Assembly: GCA_964510225.1 (NCBI GenBank)
Contig: CAZEAN010000007.1
Coordinates: forward strand, 4,047-68,046
Source of the DNA: an uncultured Isosphaeraceae bacterium
GTDB taxonomy: Bacteria > Planctomycetota > Planctomycetia > Isosphaerales > Isosphaeraceae
Length of the DNA stretch: 64,000 nt
Direction: 5' to 3'
Shown: in pieces, positions 4,254 to 47,598 of the stretch
Position numbering within the stretch: the first letter of the stretch is position 1
How the letters are laid out: each line of letters opens with the position of its first letter
The notes under the pieces: model-generated
Told to the model about the DNA's origin: nothing
Seen by the model: the letters and a program-made list of their open reading frames with translations, nothing else
The model's database searches: none
Program-made: the position numbers and the translations under genes

Positions 4254-4369
4254 CGTTTCAAAATCTCGATGCCGCCCGTTCATCGGATCGATCTGCGTAC
4301 GCTGTGGCAACATTTCTTTTTCGGTTCGGCTGCCACGGCACGCAATAACCTCTCAAGGTGATTTACGCG

Positions 4370-6298
4370 ATGAAGCTACTGGATGAAAAACTCGATGCCA
4401 GGATCCCCGAGGGGCCGCTCGATCAGAAGTGGACTGAATACCGTGGCACGATGAAGTTGGTCTCACCGAGCAACAAACGCAAGTATTCGGTAATTGTGGT
4501 CGGGACCGGTCTCGCAGGCGGTTCCGCGGCAGCGACGCTCGCGGAACTCGGCTACAACGTCATGGCATTCTGCTATCAGGATAGTGCACGGAGAGCACAC
4601 TCAATTGCTGCCCAAGGCGGAATCAACGCCTGTAAGAACTATCAAAATGACGGGGATTCGGTCGGCCGATTCTTCTACGACACGATTAAGGGTGGCGATT
4701 TCCGGAGCCGCGAGGCTAACGTCTACCGCTTAACCGAGCTCTCCGAAGAGATCATCGACCAAGCTGTTGCTCAGGGTGTCCCCTTCGCTCGAGAGTATGG
4801 CGGAACGCTCGATAACCGGAGTTTTGGTGGTGCTCAGGTTTCGAGAACGTTCTATGCGCGTGGACAGACAGGTCAGCAGTTGCTCTTGGGCTGCTACCAG
4901 GCAATGAGTCGACAGATTGCGGCCGGCAAAATTAAGATGTTCCCCAGGACGGAAATGCTCGACATCGTTGTCGCCAATGGTCGAGCGATCGGAATCATCA
5001 CCCGTGACATGATCTCTGGGAAGATTCAAAAGTGGTCGGCGGATGCCGTCGTTCTGGCGACCGGTGGTTACGGTAACGTCTTTTACCTCTCGACCAACGC
5101 CAAAGGCTGTAACGTAACCGCGACCTTCCGGGCCTATCGTGAAGGTGCCTACTTCGCCAACCCTTGTTTCACGCAGATCCACCCGACCTGCATTCCGCCG
5201 CACGGTGGTCAGCAGTCGAAATTAACGTTAATGAGCGAATCGCTCCGGAACGATGGTCGCGTTTGGGTTCCGCTGAACGTCGGTGATAAACGCGCCCCTG
5301 GTGATATCCCTGAGGAAGAGCGTGATTATTACCTAGAGCGGATCTATCCGGCCTTCGGGAATCTTGCTCCCAGAGACATCTCAAGTCGCGCCGCGAAGCG
5401 GGTCTGTGACGAAGGCCGAGGGGTCGGTAAGACCGGGATCGGTGTTTACCTTGACTTCCGTGACGCGATCCAACGTCTCGGTGCCGATACGATCAAGTCG
5501 CGATACGGGAACCTCTTCGATATTTATCAGCGGATTACAGATGAGAACCCGTACGAAGTTCCGATGCGGATCTACCCCGCGAGCCACTACACCATGGGTG
5601 GTCTCTGGGTGGATTACAACCTGATGAGTACGATCCCGGGCCTCTTTGTGATCGGAGAAGCAAACTTCTCTGACCACGGAGCAAACCGGCTTGGTGCCAG
5701 TGCCTTGCTCCAAGGGCTTGTCGACGGTTACTTCGTTCTTCCCTACACCCTGGGCGACTTCTTCGCGCGGTATCCGAAGCTCAAAGTCGACACCGATCAT
5801 CCTGAGTTCGACCAAACGGAAGCCCGGGTTAACGAGAGGATTCGGACCCTCCTCGCGGCTAACGGCAAGCGGACGCCGGATTCGTTCCATCGGGAACTCG
5901 GGCAGCTTGTATGGGACACCTGTGGGATGTCCCGGAATGCTGAGGGACTCCGAGCGGCGATCGAGCGGATTCCAGCGCTCCGGGAAGAGTTCTGGCAGAA
6001 CGTCAAGCTCGTCGGTAGCGGTGAAGAACTGAACAACTCGCTTGAGCAAGCTGGCCGTGTTGCCGACTTCATCGAACTCGGTGAGTTGATGTGTCGTGAT
6101 GCTCTCGATCGTGAAGAGTCGTGCGGGGCTCACTTCCGCGAAGAGTATCAGACCGAAGATGGCGAAGCTGTCCGGGATGACCAAAATTACTGCTACGTTT
6201 CCGCATGGAAGTCAAACGGTGGCTATCACGAGCCTGATCTGGTCAAGGAACCTTTGATCTTCGAGAACGTCGAACTCGCCACTCGAAGTTACAAATAG
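4370..6298 (+). CDS. sdhA: Succinate dehydrogenase / fumarate reductase flavoprotein subunit
   Basis: FAD-binding '[21 protein letters not shown]', '[13 protein letters not shown]' (His for covalent FAD) and '[16 protein letters not shown]'. The ATG at 4370 is preferred over the GTG at 4358. Confidence 0.95.
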
Positions 6299-6364
6299 AT
6301 CATTCCAAAACTCGATGAATCCGTTCACATCGGTGTCCGCCCCAACGGTGATTCAGACTCAATC

Positions 6365-7108
6365 ATGAAACTGACATTACACATTTGGCGTCAGAAATCG
6401 ACGAAACAATCGGGGAAGATGGTGACCTACCCCGATCGTGAAGTCAGTCCGGATCAGTCCTTCCTTGAGATGCTCGATGGACTCAATGAAGACTTGATCC
6501 TCCGAGGTGAAGACCCTGTTACGTTTGACCATGATTGCCGCGAAGGGATCTGTGGTGCGTGCGGGATGGTGATTAACGGTGTTGCACACGGTCCCGAGCA
6601 GACGACGACCTGCCAGCTTCACATGAGAAGCTTCAAGGACGGTGATGAAATCTACATCGAACCGTGGCGGGCCAATGCCTTCCCAGTCGTGAAAGATCTC
6701 ATGGTCGACCGTTCCGCTTTCGATCGCGTGATCCAGGCTGGTGGCTACATTTCAATCAACACCGGCTCGGCTCCAGAAGCGAACTCGATTCCGGTTCCGA
6801 AAGATAACGCCGAGCTAGCCTTTGACGCGGCGACTTGCATTGGGTGTGGTGCTTGCGTCGCAGCCTGCAAGAATGCCTCTGCGATGCTCTTCACTTCTGC
6901 CAAAGTCGCACAGCTTTCCAGACTTCCGCAGGGTCAAGTGGAACGGAAGCGACGGGTCATGAATATGGTACAGCAGATGGATGAAGAAGGTTTCGGCAAT
7001 TGCACCAATTATCAAGAGTGCTCTGCCGTTTGTCCGAAGGAAATCAGCACTCAGAATATCGCCGTGATGAACCGCGAGTTCCTTAGAGCATCACTCACCG
7101 GCGTTTGA
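6365..7108 (+). CDS. sdhB: Succinate dehydrogenase / fumarate reductase iron-sulfur subunit
   Basis: Cys clusters '[15 protein letters not shown]', '[11 protein letters not shown]' and 'CSAVCPKEI' (2Fe-2S, 4Fe-4S, 3Fe-4S). Confidence 0.95.
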
Positions 7109-7176
7109 TCATCAGTTGAGTCAGATTGGGCCGGGCTCGTCTCAACCCGTTGCTCATTTCAGAATTACCAATTGCG

Positions 7177-7220
7177 ATGGTCGTGAAGGCTTGCCTTAAG
7201 CTTCACGACCATTTTCTTGT
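7177..7220 (+). terminator. Rho-independent terminator after sdhB
   Basis: ATGGTCGTGAAG(G)CTT pairs with AAGCTTCACGACCAT (12 bp, a 1-nt bulge, then 3 bp; 5-nt loop) and is followed by TTTCTTGT. Confidence 0.6.
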
Positions 7221-7344
7221 GGGTAACATTATTGGATCTGGCAGTGTTTCGCGGTAGCTTCTTAAGTTCCAATCTGTTCTTGTCACTATCGAAGCCCAAT
7301 ACAGCCTTGAGACATGCAGACTCACCACAGACAATACCACGCCG

Positions 7345-8118
7345 ATGGTTGAACGACTCGAAGCACAGGCTGAACTTGTCCGAATTAACGGAATCTCAAT
7401 TACGAACGTCACCATGGACGACGCGATTGAGACGATCTTTGATGCGGTTGAGCGGGGCGAACGTCGGTTCATTTGTTTCCTCAATGCCCATTGTGTGAAT
7501 GTCGGAGCTTCAGATTCCGAATACAAGGCGATCATGAACCGAGACGATGTGATCGTTTTTGGTGATGGAGCGGGTGTCCGACTTGCCGGCAAGCTGAGCG
7601 GTCAACCGATCCGTGAAAATGTGAATGGAACCGATATGTTTCCGCTCCTTTGCGAGCGTGCGGGAGAGCGTGGGAAGTCGCTTTACCTTCTGGGTGCACG
7701 CCCCGAAATCCCGGAGGAAGCAGGGCGTCGGATGGTCGAACGTGTGCCGAGCCTAAAGATTGCGGGTACCAGACACGGCTACTTCAACGCGAGCGAGACC
7801 GACGAGGTCATTGAACAGATCAACGAGGCTAAGGCTGATCTGCTCCTCGTGGCACTCGGTGTCCCAAGGCAGGAAAAGTGGATTGCTGCACACCGCGATC
7901 GGCTCAATCCGACAGTGGTCATGGGGGTCGGCGGTCTCTTTGACTACTATTCGGGGAGGATCCCTCGGGCCCCTCGGATCCTCCGCGTCACTTCGCTCGA
8001 ATGGGTCTGGCGACTGGCGATGGAGCCAGGCCGGATGTGGAAACGCTATCTTGTTGGGAACGTCGTCTTTGTTTGCCGAGTATTCTGGTGGACACTCCGC
8101 GGAACGATTAAGAAGTAA
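7345..8118 (+). CDS. WecB/TagA/CpsF-family glycosyltransferase
   Basis: 'FLNAHCVNV...', 'VFGDGAGVRLAGKL', 'GTDMFPLL', 'LLLVALGVPRQEKWI', 'VMGVGGLFDYYSG...RAP' match the GT26 family pattern. Confidence 0.85.
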   Translation: MVERLEAQAELVRINGISITNVTMDDAIETIFDAVERGERRFICFLNAHCVNVGASDSEYKAIMNRDDVIVFGDGAGVRLAGKLSGQPIRENVNGTDMFPLLCERAGERGKSLYLLGARPEIPEEAGRRMVERVPSLKIAGTRHGYFNASETDEVIEQINEAKADLLLVALGVPRQEKWIAAHRDRLNPTVVMGVGGLFDYYSGRIPRAPRILRVTSLEWVWRLAMEPGRMWKRYLVGNVVFVCRVFWWTLRGTIKK

Positions 8119-8283
8119 CGTTGGCCAGCCAATAATCGAGGGCCGGGGCTGGTTGCTTCGTTAGTTTTGATTGATTTACTAAGTTTCGTGAGCCTGATGA
8201 CGGTCAGCCAGCACTACTGAAGCGAAGCTGCATTATACCGCGTTAAATGGATCGATCTCCAAGACGGCAGGTGTGTTGACGCG

Positions 8284-8892
8284 ATGATGAATGCAGCGAC
8301 AGAAGGTCGGGAAATTGAAAACCCTGTCGCTGACCGCACAATGAGTCTTGATCCTTCAGAATGGCTCGATGCATTTGGCGATCGGCTTTTTCGCTATGCG
8401 TTGGCACGCGTCTCTTGTCGAGCCGAGGCCGAAGACCTTGTTCAAGAGACGTTCCTCGCCGCGATCAGTGCCCGTGATCGCTACCGAGGCGAGGCAGCGG
8501 TTGAGACCTGGTTGATCTCGATCTTGAGGCGGAAGATCGTCGACCACTATCGGGCCTCGCGATCAGACTCCTCAGAAGACCAGAAGCCAACGTTCGCCGT
8601 CGAATCTCCGTTCGACGAGCACGGCTTTTGGAAGGTCCAACCGAGCCACTGGAAGTCACCTCCGGACGAACTCACACTCCAAGAATTTCTCCGGAGTCTC
8701 GACGCTTGCCTGACGCAGTTGCCAACCGCGTTGGCCGAGGTTTTCGAACGCCGAGAGATCGGTGGCGAAGATCCAGCGGCGATCTCTCGGTCACTCGGGA
8801 TTTCGAAAGGGAATCTCCGTGTCCGCTTGCATCGAGCCCGTCTCCTACTCCGTGCCTGCATCGAACGTAAGACGATGAGCACAAAGCCATAG
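8284..8892 (+). CDS. ECF (group 4) RNA polymerase sigma-70 factor
   Basis: Region 2 'AEDLVQETFLAAISARDRYRGEAAVETWLISILRRKIVDHYR' and region 4 'ISRSLGISKGNLRVRLHRARLLLR'. Confidence 0.9.
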   Translation: MMNAATEGREIENPVADRTMSLDPSEWLDAFGDRLFRYALARVSCRAEAEDLVQETFLAAISARDRYRGEAAVETWLISILRRKIVDHYRASRSDSSEDQKPTFAVESPFDEHGFWKVQPSHWKSPPDELTLQEFLRSLDACLTQLPTALAEVFERREIGGEDPAAISRSLGISKGNLRVRLHRARLLLRACIERKTMSTKP

Positions 8893-8924
8893 GCAAGTTA
8901 CCGTTGCCGTGCTAAATTCAATAC

Positions 8925-9284
8925 ATGACCTGGTTCAAATCGCTCTGGAAAATATTGACGCTTCGGTGTAGTGCTGCGTCCGCGTTGGCCTCGGATGAAC
9001 TCGATGAGCCACTCGGTTGGGTCGACACGCTTGCGTTGCGTGGGCATTTGTTGGTCTGTCGGCCGTGTCGCGCTGCGCAGCTTCAATTCAAGCGGATCAA
9101 GACGAGCCTTCAAGAAGCCCGGTCTCCATCGAGTTCCCCGATCGGTTCTATGGAAGCGGAGCGGCTTTCCGAGGAATCGAAGGCCAGGATCCGTAGCTTG
9201 ATCGCAGCGTCGACCCGAAAGGAATCCTCCGATCCGAGCCCCCGACCTGAATCCAACGGCCAACACAAGACCAGTGGCCGCTAA
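8925..9284 (+). CDS. Soluble zinc-binding anti-sigma factor (ZAS, zf-HC2)
   Basis: It lies 32 nt downstream of the ECF sigma gene. It has an H-x3-C-x2-C motif ('GHLLVCRPC': H41, C45, C48) plus C15, and no TM helix. Confidence 0.7.
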   Translation: MTWFKSLWKILTLRCSAASALASDELDEPLGWVDTLALRGHLLVCRPCRAAQLQFKRIKTSLQEARSPSSSPIGSMEAERLSEESKARIRSLIAASTRKESSDPSPRPESNGQHKTSGR

Positions 9285-9291
9285 GTGATCG

Positions 9292-10557
9292 TCAGACCAA
9301 CCTCGGGAGAACCGGCCCTCGGGGTTGATCACGGGTCAAGCAGTGGATGGTCCCGAGCCCCCAGACGAGGTCAACGGCATGAACGCCGATGACCTCACGA
9401 TCCGGGAAGAGTTCCCCGAGAATCGAGAGCGCCTCGCGGTCGGCAGGATCGTTAAAGGTGGGGACCAGGACGACCCTATTCGCGATATAGAAATTGGCGT
9501 AGCTCGCGGGAAGCCGCGTGCCGTCGAAGACAACCGGTCGCGGCATCGGAAGTTCGACAATGTGGAGCGGGTCTCCGTCAAGATCGACGGCGTTGCGGAG
9601 TCGGTGGAGGTTCTCGATCAAGACTCGGTGATTCGGGTCGTTCGAATCGCGCTCAACAACCGTCAGAATTGTCGAGGGTCCCACAAAGCGTGCGACATCA
9701 TCAATATGTCCATGAGTGTCATCGCCGACGATTCCACCTTCGAGCCAGATCACCTGCGTGATTCCGAGGAACTCGGCGAAAAGAGCTTCATAGCCTACGC
9801 GATCGAGCCCCGGATTTCGTTCTTGGACGTCGGAGAGGAGGCATTCTTCGGTTGTTAAGAGGAGGCCACGACCGTTGACATCGATGGCGCCACCTTCGAG
9901 GACGACCCGAGTTTGCGTCCCGTTGACCTCAGCCCGAGGGCGGATCCGCTTGAAATCGAGGCGTTTCGCAATGAATCGGGGAATCCGCTGATCTCGCTTC
10001 CAGTTGTCGTACTTGGCCCAGGCGTTGAACTTCCAGTCGACGACCCGGACGCTCGGCGTTTGTTCCGCCGTGGCTGGAGCGGAGGGATCGGGGAGCAGGA
10101 ACATCGGCCCGGAGTCGCGAAGCCAGGCGCGGTCGGTCGGGCACGGAAAGAAGCTGACTTGATCAAGATCGACCCCCGCCCGCTCAAGCAACGCAGTGGC
10201 TTGATCGCGCGTTTTCGGCGAGCCTACAAGGATCCGGACCGGCTCAGAGCGGCTTAAAAGTCGGACCATCTCCACAAAGACCCAAGGAATAGGGCCGAAC
10301 TTCCCAGGCCAGTCGTCTTGGTTGCGAGGCCAGGCGATCCAGGTCGCTTCATGCGGCTCCCATTCGGCCGGGAGTCGGTAACGATGGGGAGCCGGCTCGG
10401 GCTCTGGCGGAAGCCCAGGTTCAGGGGAGGGTCCGGCAACACGTTCAGATTCCGGTTCTGGTTCAGATTCCTGTCCCGGTTCCGGTTTCAGAGTGGGTTT
10501 GGTGCGTTCGTCCTCCGTCGTCGGAGCGTCTCTTTCGAATTCATCCTCGGGGGACAT
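9292..10557 (-). CDS. aguA: Agmatine deiminase with a Pro/Glu-rich N-terminal extension
   Basis: 'YRLPAEWEPHEATWIAWP', 'EGGAIDVNGRGLLLTTEECLL..RNP', 'DDTHGHIDDVARF' and C-terminal 'GTIHCLT' (catalytic Cys) are classic for the agmatine deiminase/PAD family. Confidence 0.9.
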   Translation of the reverse strand: MSPEDEFERDAPTTEDERTKPTLKPEPGQESEPEPESERVAGPSPEPGLPPEPEPAPHRYRLPAEWEPHEATWIAWPRNQDDWPGKFGPIPWVFVEMVRLLSRSEPVRILVGSPKTRDQATALLERAGVDLDQVSFFPCPTDRAWLRDSGPMFLLPDPSAPATAEQTPSVRVVDWKFNAWAKYDNWKRDQRIPRFIAKRLDFKRIRPRAEVNGTQTRVVLEGGAIDVNGRGLLLTTEECLLSDVQERNPGLDRVGYEALFAEFLGITQVIWLEGGIVGDDTHGHIDDVARFVGPSTILTVVERDSNDPNHRVLIENLHRLRNAVDLDGDPLHIVELPMPRPVVFDGTRLPASYANFYIANRVVLVPTFNDPADREALSILGELFPDREVIGVHAVDLVWGLGTIHCLTRDQPRGPVLPRLV

Positions 10558-10693
10558 CGTCGCACCTCGCCTCTACCTACCGGGGTCAACCTGCTGCAAA
10601 CGACACTATTAGGACAAGGTCCTCTTGTTCAATCAAGCAACTGGGCTATGCTGTCAGGCAATTTGAGGATTCGCTACCAAGGGAGGACGCTCC

Positions 10694-11842
10694 ATGGATG
10701 GGGTACTCAGCGCAGCTCAGCAGGGTTGGTTTGACATCGCCCGGAAGTTCGCCGCCGCGGAGCTGAGCGACGACGTCATCGAACGGGACCAGGAAGGGAC
10801 GTTCTGGCGTGATGGTTATCGCGCCTGTGGCCGGAACGGGATCCTCGGGCTGACGGTCCCTCGACAGTACGGTGGCCAAGACGTTGATCTCCCGACGGCG
10901 GTCGCCGCAATGGAAGGGCTTGGCTACGGATGTGCCGATACCGGCCTTGCGTTTGGGCTCAATGCCTCGCTCTGGACGGTGACGATGCCGATCCTGACCT
11001 TTGGCACCGAGGATCAAAAGCGGCGCTGGTTGCCCGGCCTCTGTGATGGGACCTTGTTTGGCGCGAATGCCGCGAGCGAACCCAGCGCCGGCTCGGACAT
11101 CTACGCGATGAAGACAGAGGCCGAACAACGGAGCGATGGCTCCTGGGTCTTGAACGGTCGGAAGATCTGGATCACCGGCGGTCCGGTCGCTGACGTCTTC
11201 TTAGCCTTCGCGACGATCGACTCCAGCAAAGGGGCGTTGGGGCTGACGGCCTTCATCATCCCTGGAAACACGCCCGGTCTTCGCATCGTCCGCACGATCA
11301 ACAAGCTGGGAATGCGCACGGCCCCGATGGCGGAGATTGCCTTCGAGGACTGCGTGGTGCCGTCGGAAGGGCTCCTCGATCGGCCCGGCCGCGGCGCTCG
11401 GATCTTCAACGCCGCCTTAGAATGGGAACGCGGCGCGATTCTCGCCCCGGCCTTGGGGACGATGCGGCGTCAATTGGAACGCTGCATCGAGCACGCCCGC
11501 AAGCGGAGTCAGTTCGGCCAGCCGATCGGCAAGAACCAGGCCGTCTCGCATCGGATTGTCGACATGAAACTCCGCCTTGAAACATGCCGACATCTCGTTT
11601 ATGCCTTCGCATCCAAGAAAGGCCGAGGCGAGGATGCCACCCTCGAAGCAGCGCTGGCCAAGCTTCATGTTTCTGAGACGTTCGTGCAGAACAGTCTCGA
11701 CGCCGTCCGGACATTCGGCGCCAGTGGTTATATGACGGAAACCGGCCTGGAGCGTGATCTCCGCGACTCAGTGGGCGGCGTGATTTTCTCAGGGACCAAC
11801 GACATTCAGCGCAATATCATCGCCGCCCGACTCCGGCTCTGA
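10694..11842 (+). CDS. Acyl-CoA dehydrogenase family protein
   Basis: 'GANAASEPSAGSD', 'NGRKIWITGGPVADVF', 'QFGQPIGKNQAVSHRIVDM', 'IFSGTNDIQRNIIA'. Confidence 0.9.
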   Translation: MDGVLSAAQQGWFDIARKFAAAELSDDVIERDQEGTFWRDGYRACGRNGILGLTVPRQYGGQDVDLPTAVAAMEGLGYGCADTGLAFGLNASLWTVTMPILTFGTEDQKRRWLPGLCDGTLFGANAASEPSAGSDIYAMKTEAEQRSDGSWVLNGRKIWITGGPVADVFLAFATIDSSKGALGLTAFIIPGNTPGLRIVRTINKLGMRTAPMAEIAFEDCVVPSEGLLDRPGRGARIFNAALEWERGAILAPALGTMRRQLERCIEHARKRSQFGQPIGKNQAVSHRIVDMKLRLETCRHLVYAFASKKGRGEDATLEAALAKLHVSETFVQNSLDAVRTFGASGYMTETGLERDLRDSVGGVIFSGTNDIQRNIIAARLRL

Positions 11843-11860
11843 TTGAGGGGGACCGTGTGC

Positions 11861-12589
11861 TCACTCCCCAGCAAGTCGGAGGATCAACGTGGTGGTGTAG
11901 CGGACCTGTTCGTACTCTTCCCCTTCGTCTTCGCCAGCGTTTTCAGGCTCGACAACGGTAGCGCGGAAGGCCCATTGGCCAGGGTCGACGCCAGTCAACT
12001 TGATCGAGCCCGACTTATTCGTGGTCAAATTGGCGCGGAAGCGTCCCGGGCCGCTCACGTTCACCTCGATTTTGGGGACGGCCTTGCCATGGTCAAAGAC
12101 CGTGAGCTTGAGATCGCTCCCCTTCAGTTCAGGGACGATATCGTAATCCAGCTCTGAGGAACGGCTGAGGGCGTTGAGCGCTTTCTCGTCGGTGGTATCG
12201 ATGAATTTCGCATAGTAGAAGAGTAAGGCGTTGATGTCGCCGTAGGGATAGACGCCGAACTTGCCGTAAGTCTCGATGCTCCGAGGAGCGGCGACGGCAA
12301 CCTCGGCGGTCTGATAACGCAGCTCGTCGCGCTTCACTTCGGTGAGTTCCAGCGGCATGATCCGGTCGGAAGCGAGGGAGCGGACCCAGGTCCGGGTCTT
12401 GCCTTCAAAGTCATCGACGTAGAAGCCGTCACCGGCCTTGGGGGCTTCTTCAAAAATCCAGACGGCGGTGTTGGCCGACTCGCCATCCAAGCCGGTAGCG
12501 ATCCAGAGGAAGTGGGCCGAGGCGATCGATTGAACGCCGAGGCTGATGACAATGCTGAGGAGCAGCGCAGTCCAAGGAAGCGAGCGCAT
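11861..12589 (-). CDS. Secreted DUF4198-like protein (possible periplasmic metal-binding beta-sandwich)
   Basis: The signal peptide ends 'SIASA|HFLW', a start I associate from memory with the DUF4198 family. The remainder is beta-rich with an acidic C-terminal tail. Confidence 0.45.
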   Translation of the reverse strand: MRSLPWTALLLSIVISLGVQSIASAHFLWIATGLDGESANTAVWIFEEAPKAGDGFYVDDFEGKTRTWVRSLASDRIMPLELTEVKRDELRYQTAEVAVAAPRSIETYGKFGVYPYGDINALLFYYAKFIDTTDEKALNALSRSSELDYDIVPELKGSDLKLTVFDHGKAVPKIEVNVSGPGRFRANLTTNKSGSIKLTGVDPGQWAFRATVVEPENAGEDEGEEYEQVRYTTTLILRLAGE

Positions 12590-12633
12590 GGTGGCAATTC
12601 TCCGTGCTCAAGGGGTTGGGAAACGGCCACAGT

Positions 12634-13524
12634 TTAGGGCTTGAGGAAGCGTTCCACAATCGAGCCGTAGGCGTCGATGCGACGATCGCGGAGGAAGGGC
12701 CAGTTCCGCCGGGTTTCTTCGATCAGGTTGAGGTCACAGGAAGCGACAAGGACTGCTTCTTGATCTTGGGAAGCTTGGGCGAGGACGCGGCCGAAGGGGT
12801 CGGCAATGAAGCTCCGGCCCCAGAATTCGAGGCCACCGTCAGCCGGTCCTTCGTGACCGATCCGGTTCACGGCAGCGACGAAGACACCGTTGGCAATGGC
12901 ATGGGCGCGCTGCATTGTCTGCCAGGAGTCGACCTGAGCGGCGCCGAACTCGGCTTTTTCGGCGGGATGCCAACCGATCGCGGTCGGATAGAAAATGATT
13001 TCCGCCCCTTGGAGTGCTGTCAGGCGGGCGGCCTCGGGATACCATTGATCCCAGCAGATCAAGGTGCCGAGCTGTCCTCGACTAGTGGGGAAGGTCTGGA
13101 ACCCGAGATCACCGGGGGTGAAGTAATACTTCTCAAAGTAGAGGGGGTCGTCGGGGATGTGCATTTTGCGGTAGATCCCGGCGAGGTCGCCGTCCCGCTC
13201 CAGTACGACGAGAGAATTGTGGTAGATCCCCGCCGTCCGTCGTTCGAAGACAGAGCCGACCACCACAGTCCCCAGCTCTCGTGCCACGGCGGCGAGGGCA
13301 TCGGTGGTTGGGCCCGGGATCGGCTCGGCCTGGTCGAAGTGGGCTGGATCTTCCGTCTGGCAGAAGTATTGGGTCCGGAACAGCTCCGGCAGGCAGACAA
13401 TCTCCGCCCCTTGTGCTGCCGCCTCACGGAGCAGTTGGATGGCCCGTTCGAGGTTCACCTCCGGCTCCGGGGCACAACGCATCTGGACAATGCCAAGTTG
13501 AATCTTGTTGGCGTGCTGGTTCAT
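12634..13524 (-). CDS. aguB: Carbon-nitrogen hydrolase, most likely N-carbamoylputrescine amidase
   Basis: Nitrilase-superfamily E-K-C triad context: 'IVCLPELF', 'IYRKMHIPD' and 'LICWDQWYPE'. aguA lies about 2 kb away. Confidence 0.8.
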   Translation of the reverse strand: MNQHANKIQLGIVQMRCAPEPEVNLERAIQLLREAAAQGAEIVCLPELFRTQYFCQTEDPAHFDQAEPIPGPTTDALAAVARELGTVVVGSVFERRTAGIYHNSLVVLERDGDLAGIYRKMHIPDDPLYFEKYYFTPGDLGFQTFPTSRGQLGTLICWDQWYPEAARLTALQGAEIIFYPTAIGWHPAEKAEFGAAQVDSWQTMQRAHAIANGVFVAAVNRIGHEGPADGGLEFWGRSFIADPFGRVLAQASQDQEAVLVASCDLNLIEETRRNWPFLRDRRIDAYGSIVERFLKP

Positions 13525-13618
13525 CGGCTGATGGGGTACGGTCTCACTGTGTGGTGGTGAACTGGTATTGCTTGGTCGTAGTCAGTGGTAGCCGTCTCCT
13601 TGGGCAGCGGTGACGACC

Positions 13619-16600
13619 TCACCCTCCCCGCAGTTTCTTCAGTTGGCCGCCGAACACCTGGACAATCCGTGGATCCTGGATCTCCCGCCCAATCTTCAGG
13701 GCCTGCTCGTAGTAGTCGATGGCCTTGGTGACCTCGCCGAGACGGGCGTAGGCAGAGCCCAGATTGCCGAGGAAGCTCCCCTCGCCTTGTCGGTCGCCGA
13801 TCTCCCTTGAGATGACCAATGCCTGCTCGTAGTAGTCGATGGCCTTGGTGACCTCGCCGAGACTGTCGTAGGCAATGCCCAGACTGCCGAGAGCCTTCCC
13901 CTCGCCTCGTCGGTAGCCGATCTCCCGGGCGAGGGACAGATACTGCTCGTAGTAGTCGATGGCCTTGGTGACCTCGCCGAGACGGGAGTAGGCAATACCC
14001 AGATTGCCGAGAGCGTTCCCCTGGCCTTGTCGATTGCCCGCGGCGCGGTAATGAGCGAGGCTAGCTTCCCAGTCTCGGATGGCACCGACCGCATCACCGA
14101 GGTGAATCAGTGCATTCCCACGCCGAAAGGCTGCGCTTGCTTGGATTGCTTCCGGGATGGCGTGGGCGTGGTCCGGATCTAAGAACGGTTCGATGAGGCG
14201 AAGTCCCTCACGGACTCGGCCCCGATCCTGCAGCCAGTCTGATGCCGCATCGAGCAAGGTTATGGCCCGTTCGTACGCGCCGGCTTCGAAGAGATGGTGA
14301 CCGGCTTCGATGTCGACATCGATATATGGAGAGTGCTTCGCTTTGGCTTCAAGGAAGGTGCCGATCCGCTCATGGGCCACGCGGCGGAGGGCTTCATCGT
14401 CCCCATGCCGCGTGACAATGTACCGGGAGGTGGCGGGGTGGATGGTGAAGTGACGGATCGGCTTTGGCAGTTCGGCTTTTGACTGTTTGATGATGAGATC
14501 GACGCTCTCCAACAGTGAGCTTTGGCGGAGGCGATCGGCGAGGGCTTCGACCTCGGCCTCCGGTGCTGCCGGATCGCCAAGCTGGAGCATCAATTCCCAG
14601 TCCCAAGGCTGACGCAGCAAGGTCATCCGGTAGAGCATCCGGTGCGCCGGGGGATCGAACACCTGATCCCAGAGGGCATCAAAAAGCAAGTCGTCCCGGA
14701 TCCGGTCATCGACCTGGGGCAGTACCGGCTCCATCAGGGTCGTCCATTCCCGCTGACGTTCCGTCTCATCCTTGCTATCGATCCCCTGCCAGGGGCCGCG
14801 TCGTCGCGCGTGTCGCTTCAACGCTTCCGCAAGCAATTCATCAGCGAATTGCACCGCCCGAGGATGCCCTTCGAGTTGATTCACCAGCCGTGCCCGCGAC
14901 GGGATCGAGAGGCGACGCAACGCCGGGAACCAACCGACCATCCGGAACAGATCAGCGGCCGGCATTACGTTCACCGGCAGTAATGCTTCGCCAAAATCCT
15001 CATGCTCGTAGCGACAACTCGCCAGCAGTTGCAGCTTCCCGGCCGATTGCCTGGCCAACTGATCGAGCCCCCGCCAAATGAACGCTAACCCCTCCGTCTT
15101 CCAAGCGGCAAACTCGGCGTCTTTGGCTTCCTCCGGTCCAATCATCAATGATTCAAGGTTGTCCACATAAACAACCAGTTGCTCCACGTTCTGCACCAGC
15201 ACACTGAGGTACGCCAAGAACTGTTGGCTCGGATCTGGTTCCACCTGCCGATCGACGGCGTGCGTGACCCCTTCCCACTCCAATCTGAACCGCTCTCGGC
15301 AAAAGTGAAGCAACTGCCCGAGTAGCTCGGCCGCGATGGGATCGTCCCCTTCCGTTGCCTTCTCGGCCTGGTCTCCCCAGAGAATCAACCAGGACTCCGC
15401 TGGACCCATCAGCTTCAGCGCCTGGAGTGCCAAGGTCGATTTCCCCAGGCCACCGAGCCCTTGGAGCACAATCGAGCGGTGCCCTTCCCGGGTCATCCGC
15501 CTTAGCTTGTGACGCTCGGTCCGACGTCCGATGAACCCCTCTTCCAAAATCTTGAATCGGCCCAGATCGCGATAACCCCGCTCCGGCAGGATCTCCCCGC
15601 TGGGTCGCTGTCCCAACTGTTTCGGCGTTGGGCTCAACGGTCGATCCGGTCCGTGGTGGTAGATCACCAACTGTGCCCAGGCAAACGGGGCCGGATCCTT
15701 CTCCGCCTCTCTTGTCCCCGCGTCACGATGAACCAGCTCTCCAGTAGCGACCGCGAGTGGTTCGGCCAACGCCAACCGTGCTTGGCGGACTCCAAACCCG
15801 GTGGGGTATCCATCAGCGATCGCTTGATAGAGCTTCTCCTCCGCGAGCGTCGACTTCACGTCTAAAATCGGCCCCGTATAGCCGAGAACCTGAGGGACTC
15901 CCGACTTATGGAGGCCGATCGCCACCGCCTCCAGCGCCGTCTGTTCCTGCCCATTCTCCCCGACTAACCGCCCCGATTCCTGACCGTAGCAGCTTGCGAG
16001 GTAGACAAAGCCAGGCAATTCCTTGGCGTCGGTCTTGGCTTTGAGGGATGTGACCAAGTCTTGCACGGAGACTGGGGCTTGCCGCCCTTCATCATCCTCA
16101 AAGACCAACACGCCGGGGGCACCGTGGCCCGAGAAGTGAATGCCAACGGGGCTGGTTTTCTTGTCTTCCACCAGCTCTTTCTCTTCCGGAGCGAGCCGCT
16201 GGGCGACTTTCACCTTCCCGATGAGGTCATCGAGCGTCCCCAGGTCGGTGGTTTCAGTAGGACAACGCCCGGCGAGTGCTTTGACGATCCGGTAGCTTTC
16301 CCCTTCGTAATCAAGCTTGCCCCCCTCCGGCGCCGCGACATGGACCACCAGCTTGAGCGGAATCGTCGGCTCGGGAATGACAGGCCGATCTTCCTTCAAG
16401 TTGTCTTCCCGGACCGTCCGGACGAGGTCGAGCATGCCCTCTTTGACCAAAAACCGGCCGTCGAGGCGGATCAACTCCCAAGGGAGACCAAGAAGGACCT
16501 CTTCATCAGCGCCCGATCGGATCGTGATCTTTGGCGTTGGTCGACCGGGATGGGTCGCCTCTTCGAGCCGGGTTGAGTCCTCTCCGAAGAGCAAGCTCCG

Positions 16601-17281
16601 CAGTGCATCGCCGATCACTCCCGCCGATTTGCCGATCTCACCACGCTCGAAGTCGTCCAGGTCCGGCTTCCGGAGGAGTTTGTCAAAACGATTCAGTGCC
16701 TTCTTGAGTTCATCATTTGTTAACCATGGCACCGGGACAGGTCGCTGTTGTCCATCCGATGATTGGACATTGATCGACCGCTCGTCCCCCTCTCCAATGG
16801 TGCTGAGATCGAAGATTAAATCCTGCGCGAAGGTGAGCCGTCGGGTGTCGCTTTCTTGGAGTTCATCGAGCCGGGCGATCCGTTGTGCCAGGAGCTTGGC
16901 GGCTCGTTCCGCGTCTTGATCCTGGGCATCGATCCACTGCAAGGGAGCCAGTAAGGGTTGAATATCCTTCTTTTCCAGCTCTTTCAAGAGCACCGGAAAG
17001 ATCCGCCCCTTGGGTCCGTACATCGCCAAGAAGCTGGTCCATTCGCGCTGTACCCAATGCCGTTCCGCCGATCCAGGCGTCAGCACTAAGGCGAGAAAGC
17101 GGCTCCGCCCTAATGCCTCATTGAGCACGACGACATGATTCTCACTCGCCTCGATGTCTTGCTCATCAAGAAACACCGAGAGCCCCTCTGTTTGCAAAGC
17201 CTTATTGAACTCACGAACCCATTCTTTATCCGGAGTTCCATGCGAAAGGAAGATATCAAACTGCTCAGGAGATTGTGACAT
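13619..17281 (-). CDS. TIR - CHAT (caspase-like) - STAND P-loop NTPase - TPR multidomain protein (NLR-like)
   Basis: TIR covers aa 8-118 ('FDIFLSHGTPDKEWV...RFLALVLTPGSAERHWVQREW'). CHAT covers about aa 305-545 ('IHFSGHG' with H386; 'FVYLASCYGQ' with C431). Walker A is 'GLGGLGKST' (K614) and Walker B is 'LVVYVDNLE'. The C-terminus carries 40-aa TPR units ('LGNLGIAYSRLGEVTKAIDYYEQ'). Confidence 0.85.
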   Translation of the reverse strand: MSQSPEQFDIFLSHGTPDKEWVREFNKALQTEGLSVFLDEQDIEASENHVVVLNEALGRSRFLALVLTPGSAERHWVQREWTSFLAMYGPKGRIFPVLLKELEKKDIQPLLAPLQWIDAQDQDAERAAKLLAQRIARLDELQESDTRRLTFAQDLIFDLSTIGEGDERSINVQSSDGQQRPVPVPWLTNDELKKALNRFDKLLRKPDLDDFERGEIGKSAGVIGDALRSLLFGEDSTRLEEATHPGRPTPKITIRSGADEEVLLGLPWELIRLDGRFLVKEGMLDLVRTVREDNLKEDRPVIPEPTIPLKLVVHVAAPEGGKLDYEGESYRIVKALAGRCPTETTDLGTLDDLIGKVKVAQRLAPEEKELVEDKKTSPVGIHFSGHGAPGVLVFEDDEGRQAPVSVQDLVTSLKAKTDAKELPGFVYLASCYGQESGRLVGENGQEQTALEAVAIGLHKSGVPQVLGYTGPILDVKSTLAEEKLYQAIADGYPTGFGVRQARLALAEPLAVATGELVHRDAGTREAEKDPAPFAWAQLVIYHHGPDRPLSPTPKQLGQRPSGEILPERGYRDLGRFKILEEGFIGRRTERHKLRRMTREGHRSIVLQGLGGLGKSTLALQALKLMGPAESWLILWGDQAEKATEGDDPIAAELLGQLLHFCRERFRLEWEGVTHAVDRQVEPDPSQQFLAYLSVLVQNVEQLVVYVDNLESLMIGPEEAKDAEFAAWKTEGLAFIWRGLDQLARQSAGKLQLLASCRYEHEDFGEALLPVNVMPAADLFRMVGWFPALRRLSIPSRARLVNQLEGHPRAVQFADELLAEALKRHARRRGPWQGIDSKDETERQREWTTLMEPVLPQVDDRIRDDLLFDALWDQVFDPPAHRMLYRMTLLRQPWDWELMLQLGDPAAPEAEVEALADRLRQSSLLESVDLIIKQSKAELPKPIRHFTIHPATSRYIVTRHGDDEALRRVAHERIGTFLEAKAKHSPYIDVDIEAGHHLFEAGAYERAITLLDAASDWLQDRGRVREGLRLIEPFLDPDHAHAIPEAIQASAAFRRGNALIHLGDAVGAIRDWEASLAHYRAAGNRQGQGNALGNLGIAYSRLGEVTKAIDYYEQYLSLAREIGYRRGEGKALGSLGIAYDSLGEVTKAIDYYEQALVISREIGDRQGEGSFLGNLGSAYARLGEVTKAIDYYEQALKIGREIQDPRIVQVFGGQLKKLRGG
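13681..14040 (-). repeat. Three in-frame 120-bp tandem units encoding the C-terminal TPR modules
   Basis: Periodicity is exactly 120 bp. The 41-bp core ctgctcgtagtagtcgatggccttggtgacctcgccgagac is identical at 13703, 13823 and 13943. Confidence 0.9.
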
Positions 17282-17366
17282 CTGACTGCGTCATCCATTT
17301 TTAAAGATACGATGCTATTTACAGACCAAATGCTTAACCTAGCCTACTCAAAGCTGGTTTAACGTT

Positions 17367-17405
17367 CCAGGTACCACCAATGAGAAGCTGTGCGGCGGTA
17401 CCTGG
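17367..17405 (-). terminator. Hairpin between the esterase gene and the TIR-STAND gene (weak terminator candidate)
   Basis: CCAGGTACC(a)CC pairs with GG(c)GGTACCTGG, giving a 9-bp perfect stem plus 2 bp after one mismatch and a 15-nt loop. There is no clear U-tract on the minus strand. Confidence 0.3.
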
Positions 17406-17420
17406 AATCTCATGAATCTC

Positions 17421-18341
17421 TTACTCGTCGCGGAGGAACTGCGGTAGCTCCCCTTCACCCTTGAGGTGTCGGTCGAAGAACCGTTCGGTTAAGAGGAAAG
17501 TGCGTTCGAGATCAGGATCAGGCCAACCGTGGCCGGCGTTGATCAAGAGTTCGACGCGCCCTTGGCCATTGGCATTGGTCATTGCTTCCGTGAGCTTGAT
17601 CGCCTGGGTTGTTGGGATCAGCGGGTCCTTGGTCCCTTGGAACGTGAGGATCGGCGGATCATCCTCCGATACGTAAGTGAGCGGTGAGGCCGCCTTCGAT
17701 TCGGCTGGCTTTTCTTCCTGAGATCCACCGATGAAGTCGGTGAGAAGCGGAACTGAAACGTCCGGGATATCGTCGGCGGTGAGGTCGGTCGGACCAAAGA
17801 AGTTGACCACCGCTTGAATCCGGGTGCTGGTGGAGTCGTCGGCATCGGGCCCTTCGAGACCGTCATCTGCGTCAGTGACACCGAGCATCAGCGCCAGATG
17901 GCCTCCCGCCGAGAACCCAACCGCACCGATTTTCTCAGGGTCGACATTATATTCCTCCGCATGCTTCCGGAGCCAACGGACCGCTGCCTTTACATCATGA
18001 ACTTGTGCAGGAAAGGTGTGCGTTGGGCAGAACCGGTACTGTGGTGAGACTGCGACATAACCGCCTTCGGCAAATCGGCTCAACAGATCGCGCAACTGGG
18101 CCTTGTCTCCTGCCCTCCAGGCTCCACCATGAATCGCCATGATCGCCGGAAATGGCCCATCACCAGTCGGCTTCGCGAGGTCGATCTTAAGTTCCTCTTG
18201 GTCGACCACGGTGTAAGTGATGTCCTCCACCGTTTCGACGTGACCATCCAGACCAAAGGCCGGACTGCAATTGATGGAGAGGCCGAGAGCGACCACCGTG
18301 AAGGCAAGGGTCGCTTGTACTGTGCGTTGAGAGAGTTTCAT
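17421..18341 (-). CDS. Secreted alpha/beta-hydrolase (esterase/lipase, hydrolase fold-3 type)
   Basis: Oxyanion motif 'HGGAWRAGD' and nucleophile elbow 'GFSAGGHLA'. The start was moved to the ATG at 18341 (MKLSQRTVQATLAFTVVALGLS signal peptide), which removes the 29-nt overlap with the upstream gene. Confidence 0.8.
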   Translation of the reverse strand: MKLSQRTVQATLAFTVVALGLSINCSPAFGLDGHVETVEDITYTVVDQEELKIDLAKPTGDGPFPAIMAIHGGAWRAGDKAQLRDLLSRFAEGGYVAVSPQYRFCPTHTFPAQVHDVKAAVRWLRKHAEEYNVDPEKIGAVGFSAGGHLALMLGVTDADDGLEGPDADDSTSTRIQAVVNFFGPTDLTADDIPDVSVPLLTDFIGGSQEEKPAESKAASPLTYVSEDDPPILTFQGTKDPLIPTTQAIKLTEAMTNANGQGRVELLINAGHGWPDPDLERTFLLTERFFDRHLKGEGELPQFLRDE

Positions 18342-18393
18342 CTGAGTTTTGCTCCAGGCTATCAGTTCAGGGAATCGGTTCCAGGGTACTACA

Positions 18394-19401
18394 CTAAAAC
18401 CAGAGTGTTTTATCAACAACATTCATGAGCGGTTTGTTGTTAACAAAACGCCTGACGTTCTCGACCAGAGTTTCAAGGTGTCGCGCGGCAATGACGGTTG
18501 AATAGCCGGCCGTGTGTGGTGTCAGAATGACGTTCGGGAAGTCCCAGAGCGGGTGGTCTGAGGGTAACGGTTCAACTTCGAAGACGTCGAGCGCGGCACC
18601 CCCAAGCTGATTCGATTGAAGTGCAGCGACGAGCGCATCGAGTCGGACGATCGGCCCTCGCCCGATGTTGATCAAGAAACTCCCCGGCTTCATCTGATCA
18701 AATGCAGCCGTATCGAACAATCCGATCGTCTCAGGCGTTTGTGGTGCCGCGATGACGACGAAGTCAGCATTCTTGAGAAGTTCGGGGAGTCGATCGATCG
18801 GCCAGATGACACTCAGCGGTATGTTTCGATCTACACGGTCGGGAAACCGATCGACCGCCAAAAGACTGATCCCAAAGGCCGAAGCACGGCGCGCAATCTC
18901 CGCCCCAATTGCACCGAGACCGACGATCCCCATCGTCGTTTCAGGAAGATAGATGGTGGCACGATCCATCGCGTTCACGGTTCCCGGACCAGATGCGAAA
19001 CTCACTCGTGCAGCTTCTCCACCCGCCGGTTCATAACGATGCTCCAGTTGCTGGCGAATGTAGGTGTGCAGGTTCCGCGCGAAGCAGAGCACATAGCCCA
19101 TTACTTGATCGGCGATCACGTCCCCGAAGAGACCTCGCATGTTGGTCAAGACACAAGGGTGTTCCACGAGCCCTGGGAACAGATAGTGTTCCAAGCTTGC
19201 CGTGAACGACTGGACCCACTTGAGTTCATCGGCTCTGTCGAGCATCGCAGCGGTGATTTTACCGAGTACGCCTGCGGTCCCGGGCATCGCCGCAATCGCC
19301 GCAACTTCGTCTGAAGCATTGACGACGGTGGCACCCGGACAAACTGCAGCGATCGCTTCCAGCCTCAAGTTATCGACAGCAGGGTGGATGACCAACTTCA
19401 T
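18394..19401 (-). CDS. D-isomer-specific 2-hydroxyacid dehydrogenase family protein
   Basis: NAD-binding 'GIVGLGAIGAEIARRA', 'INIGRGPIV', 'GAALDVFEVEPLP' and 'NVILTPHTAG'. Confidence 0.85.
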   Translation of the reverse strand: MKLVIHPAVDNLRLEAIAAVCPGATVVNASDEVAAIAAMPGTAGVLGKITAAMLDRADELKWVQSFTASLEHYLFPGLVEHPCVLTNMRGLFGDVIADQVMGYVLCFARNLHTYIRQQLEHRYEPAGGEAARVSFASGPGTVNAMDRATIYLPETTMGIVGLGAIGAEIARRASAFGISLLAVDRFPDRVDRNIPLSVIWPIDRLPELLKNADFVVIAAPQTPETIGLFDTAAFDQMKPGSFLINIGRGPIVRLDALVAALQSNQLGGAALDVFEVEPLPSDHPLWDFPNVILTPHTAGYSTVIAARHLETLVENVRRFVNNKPLMNVVDKTLWF

Positions 19402-43014: not shown

Positions 43015-43857
43015 TTGGTTGGTCAGCCTGGCAACAGAAGGAGATCGGTCTTGGCCGAAAACTATCAACACTATCGGACCATTGCCGAGTCGGTTGCCCG
43101 GAATGCCGGTGCTGTCCTCCGAGATCGCTTTGGTAGGGTCGACGTCCGGGAAAAGGGGCCAGGTGATCTCGTCACGGAAGCGGATCTTGCCAGCCAGCGG
43201 ATGATCGCGAAGGCCATCGCCGACGCCTTCCCGGAACACACACTACTCGCTGAGGAAGAAGGAGTTCGACCCGACCCGGACCGCCCTTGGCGTTGGATCG
43301 TCGATCCCCTCGATGGGACCGTCAACTTTGCGCATCGATTCCCATTCTGGACCGTCTCTATTGCGTTGGAACATCAGGGTGAACTGGTCGTCGGCGTCAT
43401 TCACGACCCCATCGCAGGAAGCCTCTATTCGACTTCGAAAGGGGGCGGCACGACCTTGGACGGATCGCCGATCCGTGTCTCAGAACCCTTAAAACTGGGA
43501 GAGTCTCTGATCACGGCAGCGTTCCCGACTCGCTTTGGTGACGACGCACCTACCCAGCTTGCGTTGATGGGAAGGTTCTCCACAAACACTCACTCGGTCC
43601 GAAGGACGGGTTCGACGGCCTACAACCTTGCGATTCTCGCTGCCGGTGGTTGCGAGGTCTGCTTCGGGACACATGTGCATCCATGGGATGTCGCTGCTGG
43701 TGTCCTCCTTGTCCGAGAAGCGGGTGGACGCGTCACCCAGCTCAATGGAGATCCCTACAATCTCTACGGAAAAGAGATTCTTGCGACGAACGGGTTGGTG
43801 CACGACGAGGCCGTTCGGGCGGTTGCGGAAGCAATGGCCTCACTCGCTCGATCGTGA
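43015..43857 (+). CDS. Inositol monophosphatase family protein
   Basis: 'LVTEADLASQ', 'LAEEEG', 'WIVDPLDGTVNFAH' and 'HPWDVAAGVLLVREAGG'. The start codon is uncertain (TTG at 43015 or downstream). Confidence 0.9.
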   Translation: MVGQPGNRRRSVLAENYQHYRTIAESVARNAGAVLRDRFGRVDVREKGPGDLVTEADLASQRMIAKAIADAFPEHTLLAEEEGVRPDPDRPWRWIVDPLDGTVNFAHRFPFWTVSIALEHQGELVVGVIHDPIAGSLYSTSKGGGTTLDGSPIRVSEPLKLGESLITAAFPTRFGDDAPTQLALMGRFSTNTHSVRRTGSTAYNLAILAAGGCEVCFGTHVHPWDVAAGVLLVREAGGRVTQLNGDPYNLYGKEILATNGLVHDEAVRAVAEAMASLARS

Positions 43858-43993
43858 TACGATTCCGAGTGTTCTGAAGGGCATTACCATTCGCTCACGG
43901 TTCCTCTCTAACGTCCAGCAAGGCGCCACAGTTCCCCTCGCTTGCGCCTCTTTTAAAACGATCACGAACCCGTCCCGCTTGAGGGCTCCGAGC

Positions 43994-47542: not shown

Positions 47543-47598
47543 AGTTGTCCAAGGTGAGCTTCAGGGATCTTATTGGCTTGACGTTATCATTGCGACCG

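Follow-up and report, generated by a model that had tools for sequence, protein, structure and literature searches.

We analysed a 64,000-nt stretch of Isosphaeraceae contig CAZEAN010000007.1, hereafter the window, to which coordinates refer unless a relative's locus is named. Its reverse strand carries an ATG-initiated gene of 1220 codons, free of internal stops in the open reading frame (ORF) list and translation, whose product joins a TIR domain, a CHAT caspase-like protease domain, a STAND NTPase and a tetratricopeptide repeat (TPR) array in one chain (Table 1). An earlier note, made from the letters of the sequence, had described a single 1220-aa ORF with these four modules. This was borne out by a Pfam scan (TIR_2, CHAT, a sub-cut-off AAA_16 and strong TPR_12/TPR_1), by Foldseek and by two AlphaFold2 (AF2) models. 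The first model covers aa 1-580 and was built on 83 family sequences (pLDDT 89, pTM 0.90), and the second covers aa 556-1220 (pLDDT 94, pTM 0.88). The key residues proposed in that note (E80, H386, C431 and K614) were all found at these positions. Relatives carry working labels, P for proteins and L for loci.

Table 1. Positions of the gene, its modules and its neighbours in the window, and of DinB-family genes at loci of relatives
Feature	Coordinates	Strand	Basis
TIR-CHAT-STAND-TPR gene, 1220 aa, complete	13619..17281	-	ORF list and translation; stop codon 13619-13621
TIR domain, aa 8-130	16892..17260	-	Pfam TIR_2, phmmer, Foldseek
TIR-CHAT linker, aa 131-152	16826..16891	-	Family alignment
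CHAT caspase-like protease domain, aa 153-545	15647..16825	-	Pfam CHAT, AF2, Foldseek
CHAT N-terminal subdomain, aa 153-257			
CHAT catalytic core, aa 258-545			
STAND NTPase (NBD-HD-WHD), aa 581-985	14327..15541	-	AF2, Foldseek, motifs
C-terminal TPR array (putative sensor), aa 986-1220	13622..14326	-	Pfam TPR_12/TPR_1, Foldseek, AF2
120-bp tandem repeat (regular TPR units)	13679..14038	-	TRF and repeat search (family D1)
Upstream spacer, 139 bp	17282..17420	-	Sequence, GC, inverted repeat I4
Esterase (BD-FAE/Abhydrolase_3), upstream	17421..18422	-	
CN_hydrolase (aguB), downstream	12634..13524	-	
Agmatine deiminase (aguA)	9292..10557	-	
DinB-family gene, locus L085	13273..13743		
DinB-family gene, locus L091	4973..5440		
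DinB-family gene, locus L096	9363..9833		
NBD-HD-WHD, nucleotide-binding, helical and winged-helix domains; TRF, Tandem Repeats Finder.

Domains and conserved residues

The N-terminal domain matches Pfam TIR_2 (aa 10-130, E 1.6e-23). Searched with Foldseek, the first 135 residues of the AF2 model matched AbTir (7uxu; TM score 0.84 on the target, root-mean-square deviation 2.2), and further fold matches among TIR NADases in the PDB were BtpA/TcpB, BtTir and PdTIR. A WxxxE motif lies in RHWVQREW (W76, 17054-17056; E80, 17042-17044), and phmmer alignments place E80 on the WxxxE glutamate of BtpA/TcpB (W..RE), BtTir and AbTir (DWTNYE). In these enzymes this glutamate is the catalytic residue (E208 in AbTir). 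W76 is conserved in 95% of 107 relatives and invariant in the 83-sequence alignment of TIR-bearing members, and E80 is conserved in 96% of the 107. The flavodoxin-like TIR fold and the catalytic glutamate of WxxxE, which characterise bacterial NADase-type TIRs, are both present, and the domain is most likely an NAD-cleaving enzyme. In the defence libraries its best matches were effector-type TIRs (PADLOC PDC-S66 and TIR-SAVED, NCBIfam retron-TIR), with ThsB models scoring lower. In the linker that follows, a stretch around D145/R147 is conserved among TIR-bearing members, and native TIR-less relatives start with a methionine immediately past it. The TIR-coding segment (16892-17281) has a GC content of 0.53 (0.61 at third codon positions, GC3), against 0.60-0.62 (GC3 0.69-0.72) in the remaining gene. 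This could reflect a separate origin of a swappable module or a 5'-end expression effect.

Pfam detected the CHAT domain (aa 258-540) with 38.4 bits, the cut-off being 24 (E 1.2e-9), and its core is the most conserved domain of the family. The His-Cys dyad consists of H386 (16124-16126) in IHFSGHG and C431 (15989-15991) in LASCYG, conserved in 96% and 98% of the 107 relatives. Foldseek against the PDB returned the Craspase TPR-CHAT protein Csx29 (7zoq, E 5e-9), separase, the SAVED-CHAT filament 8tl0 and DdvA; the E-values for Csx29, separase and SAVED-CHAT ranged from 5e-9 to 1e-6. In the CHAT family profile, HFSGHG and LASC align to GHG and LNAC of 8tl0; HYSGHG of metacaspase-4 likewise lines up with the His motif. 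Both the caspase-hemoglobinase/CHAT fold and the His-Cys dyad of clan CD proteases are therefore present, and from the established members of this clan we infer that the domain is proteolytically active. No SAVED domain was found in the 1220-aa protein by the Pfam scan. The earlier note had staked its proposal on searches upholding the TIR and CHAT folds with aligned catalytic residues. Both folds were supported, and the catalytic residues align with those of solved enzymes and are 96-98% conserved.

For the central NTPase, Pfam gave an AAA_16 match at aa 583-711 (E 3.6e-4) that lies below the cut-off. The STAND motifs, reportedly as defined by Leipe et al. in 2004, are in place: hhGRExE as FIGRRTE (583-589), Walker A as GLGGLGKST with K614 (15440-15442), Walker B as VVYVDN(LE) with D707 (15161-15163), a sensor-1-like R757 (ASCRY), GxP as GHP (805-807) and the histidine of the winged-helix domain (WHD), H948. 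These residues are 99-100% conserved in the family (K614 in 99% and D707 in 100% of the 107 relatives), with GHP and H948 invariant. The STAND P-loop with Walker A K614 and Walker B VVYVDNLE described in the earlier note stands. The features of a STAND protein, namely hhGRExE, Walker A and B, and a fold of nucleotide-binding, helical and winged-helix domains (NBD-HD-WHD) joined to a repeat array, are all found, with one caveat in Walker B. There the sequence reads DN: N708 is 99% conserved, no acidic residue directly follows D707, and E710 lies at +3.

The top Foldseek match over the full length was the STAND-TPR protein PH0952 (6mfv, E 2.3e-14), with MalT (8bob) and the NB-ARC domain of NRC1 (8bv0) ranking lower. 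Sequence similarity is marginal. A phmmer search with the nucleotide-binding oligomerisation domain (NOD) region returned no match in the PDB, and the NOD family profile matched 6mfv alone (E 0.038), via FiGRRrEl...GlGGlGKstLA. The motif shared with PH0952 reads FxGRxxE...GxGGxGKT(S)LA, and H948 aligns to the WHD histidine of PH0952 (LHP against hHD). The label "NB-ARC-type" given earlier to the P-loop was not upheld. The window protein matched neither the NB-ARC profile (PF00931), even at E<=1, nor the NACHT profile (PF05729) in Pfam. The PH0952/MalT-like STAND group is suggested instead, by its fold and by the marginal match of the family profile. One relative, P0128, scored 23.2 bits against the NB-ARC profile, whose cut-off is 23.5, and the DNLE of Walker B may loosely resemble the DGxDE motif of NACHT.

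The C-terminus has strong TPR_12/TPR_1 matches (aa ~1047-1204) and is all-helical in the AF2 model, with Foldseek matches to the TPRs of LGN/Pins. Irregular TPR-like helices come first; after them stand a degenerate 40-aa repeat and three near-identical ones, all of the LGN/Pins type. At the DNA level these form a tandem array of three 120-bp copies with 82-86% nucleotide identity (Tandem Repeats Finder: period 120, 2.8 copies, 86% matches). Family members have one to nine regular 40-aa repeats, most often six, and the window protein has three plus the degenerate one; some members, including P0090 (complete, 1219 aa), show no TPR match at all. In an entropy profile of 484 repeats the peaks are at positions 2, 3, 9, 12 and 13, which lie on one face of helix A, and also at 29 and 31, while the scaffold outside these positions is near-invariant.

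Relatives, N-terminal variation and gene neighbourhoods

A protein search recovered ~107 clusters with the same domain set, the alignments spanning 50-100% of the query with 40-55% identity. Their source names include Thermoanaerobaculia, Myxococcales, Nitrospira, Alphaproteobacteria, Pseudoxanthomonas, Pirellulaceae and Planctomycetes, and the family occurs patchily in several phyla. When the CHAT+NOD core (aa 150-985) was used for an exhaustive HMMER search, 188 representatives were returned at E<=1e-30 and 1187 at E<=1e-3, counted as cluster representatives at 50% identity. In a MAFFT alignment of the 107 sequences, 298 query positions are conserved at 90% or more. At 15 of 195 near-invariant columns the window protein departs from the family, and its closest relative, P0002, shares eight of these departures. 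These shared deviations mark a divergent subclade, and with all catalytic residues intact a pseudogene or decaying copy was ruled out.

The slot in front of CHAT is variable. It holds TIR in ~91 members and SIR2_2 (at aa ~100-250; for example P0013, P0079, P0094 and P0111) in ~41, with single cases of DUF4062 (P0187) and of a Peptidase_C14 caspase (P0109). Native TIR-less relatives start with a methionine at the CHAT N-terminal subdomain and keep the dyad intact; one of them, P0086, is called complete and lies on an 8.4-Mb contig. A preprint reports DUF4062 to be a TIR-like NADase (bioRxiv 10.64898/2026.05.01.722283). Three unrelated NAD+-consuming folds in the same slot suggest that TIR would act as an NAD+-depleting effector and not as a dedicated signal generator, and the existence of native CHAT-only versions suggests that CHAT can be the sole effector. 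This argues that CHAT-STAND-TPR may be a constant chassis on which the N-terminal NADase is an exchangeable second effector.

One metagenome-assembled genome (MAG) of Thermoanaerobaculia carries two paralogues, L001 and L002, which are 58% identical in the sensor-proximal region versus 70-80% elsewhere. In a scan of genome contigs TPR-only matches dominated, and the two true full-length loci both came from one Thermoanaerobaculia MAG. Exact-protein contig look-ups for the window protein and P0002 gave no match, and a metagenome scan using the esterase neighbour found no relatives. At L116, L117 and L118 (about 5770-9058) the family gene is broken into two ORFs that overlap, one matching query aa ~128-471 and the other 519-1204; this points either to a copy that is frameshifted or in decay or to a misassembly.

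Apart from DinB, no neighbour family recurred in the flanks of relatives, of which 33 upstream and 21 downstream were compared. At three loci the start of a DinB-family gene lies only a few bases from the CHAT-STAND-TPR stop codon; two of these relatives are TIR-less and one is TIR-bearing, and DinB is absent from the window. The lack of a conserved neighbour indicates a single-gene system, and a multi-gene system was ruled out on the same grounds. No cas genes were found among the window neighbours or in seven annotated contexts of relatives. On the two nearest planctomycete contigs with aguB (L087 and L088), aguB and aguA flank one intervening gene, the genes on the other side differ and the TIR-CHAT gene is missing beside aguB. 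The gene thus does not belong to a conserved core synteny, the arrangement that the earlier note had said would speak against its proposal.

Some relatives lie among defence or mobile genes. L135 has a methyltransferase, a ResIII helicase and a restriction endonuclease (resembling type III restriction-modification), an AAA_15/DUF4276 pair and transposases nearby, and L136 has Mrr, a PIN/PhD toxin-antitoxin pair, integrases and insertion sequence (IS) elements. The L080 gene sits within an integrase/IS21/Prim-Pol island. At L082 it adjoins YopA and RadC between duplicated gene pairs; there, the family gene, RadC and YopA-like genes (4318-18318) are flanked by two near-duplicate pairs of CLIPPER-domain genes, as if they had been inserted into a surface-protein locus or such a locus had been duplicated around them.

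A candidate immune sensor, its alternatives and known systems

We consider it somewhat better than an even bet that the protein is a self-contained, single-chain STAND sensor-effector, similar to nucleotide-binding leucine-rich repeat (NLR) receptors, with a role in immunity or cell suicide. This reading starts from what the analysis established: the domains and folds, the conserved residues for catalysis and nucleotide binding, the module swaps, the lack of partner genes and the variable context. An immune role is suggested by the swapping of TIR, SIR2 and DUF4062 together with the relatives in restriction, toxin-antitoxin and transposon islands. The patchy occurrence, the sensor-proximal divergence of the two paralogues, the changing repeat number with its hypervariable helix face and the effector-type TIR matches also speak for this reading. 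The earlier note's candidate immune-type dual-effector sensor gains support, as a candidate, from these swaps and island-borne relatives and from the non-conserved synteny.

In the mechanism we propose, the TPR array and the helical region preceding it would sense a ligand, probably an extended peptide or an invader protein. Binding would release the NBD-HD-WHD switch, leading to ATP binding and oligomerisation. The oligomer would gather the N-terminal enzymes and switch both on, CHAT by induced proximity and TIR by self-association into an active NADase, and proteolysis with loss of NAD+ would then arrest or kill the cell in an abortive-infection or conflict response. Ligand sensing, oligomerisation, the two enzymatic activities and the immune role are modelled on Avs/NLR proteins, AbTir-type TIRs and clan CD proteases.

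Several points weigh against this proposal. Every member of the family is so far known by sequence. In Walker B the second acidic residue that is customary there is missing, and hydrolysis of ATP may therefore be weak or dispensable. The putative sensor (~235 aa) is short compared with characterised Avs sensors, and conservation along the whole length (the 298 columns at 90% or more) is unusually high for an immune sensor. Among the Avs models of PADLOC-DB v2 there was no match, the matches being at the level of TIR and TPR (the comparison did not extend to the Avs6-21 clades of PMC13581612), and neither PADLOC nor NCBIfam has a full-length model of the architecture. A scan with the NOD profile found no relatives in IMG/VR viral contigs. 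The window gene itself lies in a housekeeping neighbourhood (sdhA, wecG, bioB, DUF1559, sulfatase and cytochrome c assembly genes) and has the same host-like composition and codon usage as its neighbours, and three of the seven contexts of relatives examined (L081, L085 and L134) are metabolic, with ordinary genes around.

Part of this evidence would suit a non-immune host STAND regulator, or a stress or developmental cell-death switch, that senses an endogenous peptide or metabolite and uses TIR as an interaction or regulatory module. We regard this as unlikely. Its models would be MalT/AfsR-like TPR STANDs and the CHAT anti-sigma factor DdvA. PH0952 and MalT are indeed the structural neighbours of the NOD, the non-immune DdvA is among the CHAT fold matches, and the high conservation, the housekeeping surroundings and the native codon usage of the window copy point the same way. 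Yet the protein has no DNA-binding or other output domain save two degradative enzymes with intact catalytic residues. The exchange of TIR, SIR2 and DUF4062 is typical of conflict systems, the distribution is patchy, with paralogues in some genomes and relatives in mobile or defence islands, and synteny is not conserved.

Slightly less probable still is a two-step circuit wired into one NLR-like protein, with the constant CHAT and the swappable NADase not acting as parallel effectors. Either the STAND oligomer would first switch on CHAT, which would then license TIR or SIR2 by proteolysis, or the product of TIR would gate CHAT. If true, this would fuse apoptosome-like (caspase) and TIR-NLR-like logic in a single polypeptide, and an extended peptide would be sensed via a recombining, hypervariable array of 40-aa TPRs.

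We think it improbable that the protein contains a built-in cascade from TIR to caspase, a fused analogue of type IV Thoeris in which, once STAND had sensed a trigger, a signal derived from ADP-ribose (for example N7-cADPR) and made by TIR would allosterically activate CHAT as the only killer. Type IV Thoeris does couple a TIR signal generator to the caspase-like effector ThsE, a single immune pathway that draws on both enzyme families (bioRxiv 10.1101/2024.10.24.620036), and in the window protein TIR and CHAT lie side by side, are conserved together and form a single compact unit in the model (pTM 0.90). Thoeris relies on two genes and diffusible N7-cADPR and has no STAND or TPR; in the window protein both enzymes are joined to an NTPase switch, and SIR2 can stand in for TIR. 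Instead of separate TIR and caspase-like genes in an operon, we found fused domains and no conserved partner. Against the cascade, the slot in front of CHAT holds SIR2_2 or DUF4062, or is empty, in close relatives, so that NAD+ depletion fits better than a specific cyclic signal, and CHAT-only members need no TIR. Pfam recognised no SAVED, SLOG or Macro domain between TIR and CHAT, and the closest TIR profiles were those of effector TIRs, ahead of ThsB.

Equally improbable in our view is that CHAT is an internal processing or licensing protease that, once activated, cuts its own chain, for example at the conserved Arg-rich TIR-CHAT linker, or a specific partner, leaving the unleashed NADase as the true effector. 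Clan CD proteases such as separase and metacaspases commonly autoprocess, the D145/R147 linker stretch is conserved in TIR-bearing members, and CHAT is the invariant, most conserved part of the family; but TIR-less members keep the dyad, so CHAT must have a role independent of the NADase, and SIR2-bearing members lack an RRL-type linker motif.

The single-chain sensor-effector we favour belongs to an established general kind, the NLR-like abortive-infection sensors. STAND/NLR-like proteins of bacteria that combine TPR sensors with TIR, SIR2 or caspase-like effectors have been described (PMC7159879, PMC8195603, PMC13581612), and a STAND phylogeny distinguishes 589 clades (PMC13581612). Avs/AVAST and other NLR-like STANDs (PMC13581612; PADLOC 'TIR-NLR') have the same single-chain order of effector, STAND and TPR-like sensor with shuffling modules. 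They draw on a common effector repertoire of TIR, SIR2 and caspase-like domains, and oligomerisation is the expected activation logic. Unlike Avs, the window protein carries an NADase and CHAT in tandem instead of one catalytic domain, a short sensor of regular 40-aa repeats, DN in Walker B and a NOD sequence not recognisably like that of any solved STAND. The PADLOC 'TIR-NLR' model matched aa 10-99 only (E 0.0023). The solved 824-aa 'tetratricopeptide repeat protein' of PDB 9m0n and 9umd has the same length as that profile, and its N-terminus weakly matches the window TIR (E 7e-4); it may be a characterised bacterial TIR-STAND-TPR protein.

Other known proteins share parts of the chain. PH0952 and MalT-type proteins, of which PH0952 is the best full-length structural match, share the NBD-HD-WHD-TPR order but have no N-terminal enzymatic effectors, MalT being a transcription activator. 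The regulated antiviral proteases Craspase TPR-CHAT (Csx29) and SAVED-CHAT have the closest folds to aa 153-545 and the same His and Cys motifs. Unlike the STAND-linked CHAT, these CRISPR-associated proteases are triggered by Cas7-11 and target RNA or by filaments driven by cyclic tri-adenylate (cA3), and their substrates, Csx30 and PCaspase, are encoded nearby. The window gene has neither a cas context nor a SAVED domain with an adjacent substrate gene.

Targets of diversity-generating retroelements (DGRs) carry C-type-lectin variable regions. A DGR-diversified CHAT+TIR target protein of Thiohalocapsa PB-PSB1 (PMC10907252) also unites the two domains in one putative conflict protein; compared by its description only, it has no STAND-TPR described. 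It was the only mention found of CHAT with TIR in the literature on TIR-CHAT and CHAT+STAND+TIR, where no description of the full architecture was found. The tandem of NADase and CHAT differs from the characterised systems found. The earlier claim that no characterised system has this exact arrangement agrees with the literature, PADLOC and NCBIfam. The architecture was also said to be unusual; it is uncharacterised, as these sources show, but with ~107 relatives and 188 core representatives it is not rare.

As far as we know, bacterial NLR-like proteins have one effector each. In the present family a caspase-like protease and an NADase both lie behind one STAND switch. It would illustrate how one receptor can drive the two signature outputs of eukaryotic innate immunity, caspase activation and NAD+ cleavage by TIR. 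Natural TIR, SIR2, DUF4062 and effector-less variants provide ready-made controls for separating the two effectors. If the family is immune, it would be a new compact single-gene system whose short, regular TPR sensor may be easy to re-target. The architecture is widespread, uncharacterised and experimentally tractable, and its function is one we infer.

The locus in the window

The neighbours of the gene are those named in the earlier note, an esterase upstream and aguB downstream; Pfam and homologue names agree, with homologues of the CN_hydrolase called N-carbamoylputrescine amidase. The best aguB homologues (71-76% identity) come from Isosphaeraceae, Singulisphaera and Paludisphaera, which makes the host a planctomycete without near kin among sequenced genomes. 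No tRNA, integrase or flanking repeats were found near the gene in the window, and together with the host-like composition this ruled out a recent horizontal insertion. Between aguB and aguA (9292-13524), the window has an acyl-CoA dehydrogenase gene (10694-11842, +) and a DUF4198-like ORF (11861-12589, -), where L087 and L088 have one opposite-strand gene of ~220 aa.

Further away, two adjacent giant ORFs of 1304 and 2348 aa (43628-47542 and 47545-54591, +) have no Pfam (E<=1e-5) or PADLOC match, and the ORFs at 38490-40814, 40924-42966 and 29300-31648 are likewise unannotated. Other defence genes were sought among the large Pfam-less ORFs of the window, and none matched PADLOC. A 318-aa ORF with a GTG start (12604-13560, +) runs antisense to aguB without a Pfam match and is almost certainly a spurious shadow ORF of high-GC DNA.

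The spacer between the gene and the esterase was described earlier as AT-richer and as consistent with a promoter of the gene's own. It is AT-richer (GC 0.446 against 0.565 in the window), but the promoter found no such backing, with no sigma-70 consensus match in the spacer. Also in the spacer, 14 nt past the esterase stop, is a hairpin (17365-17407) whose 14-nt arms (TTCCAGGTACCACC / GGCGGTACCTGGAA) enclose a loop of 15 nt. It looks like a terminator of the esterase gene, although the terminator scan detected no T-run. Presumably, the spacer carries this esterase terminator together with a plausible promoter of the TIR-CHAT gene's own.

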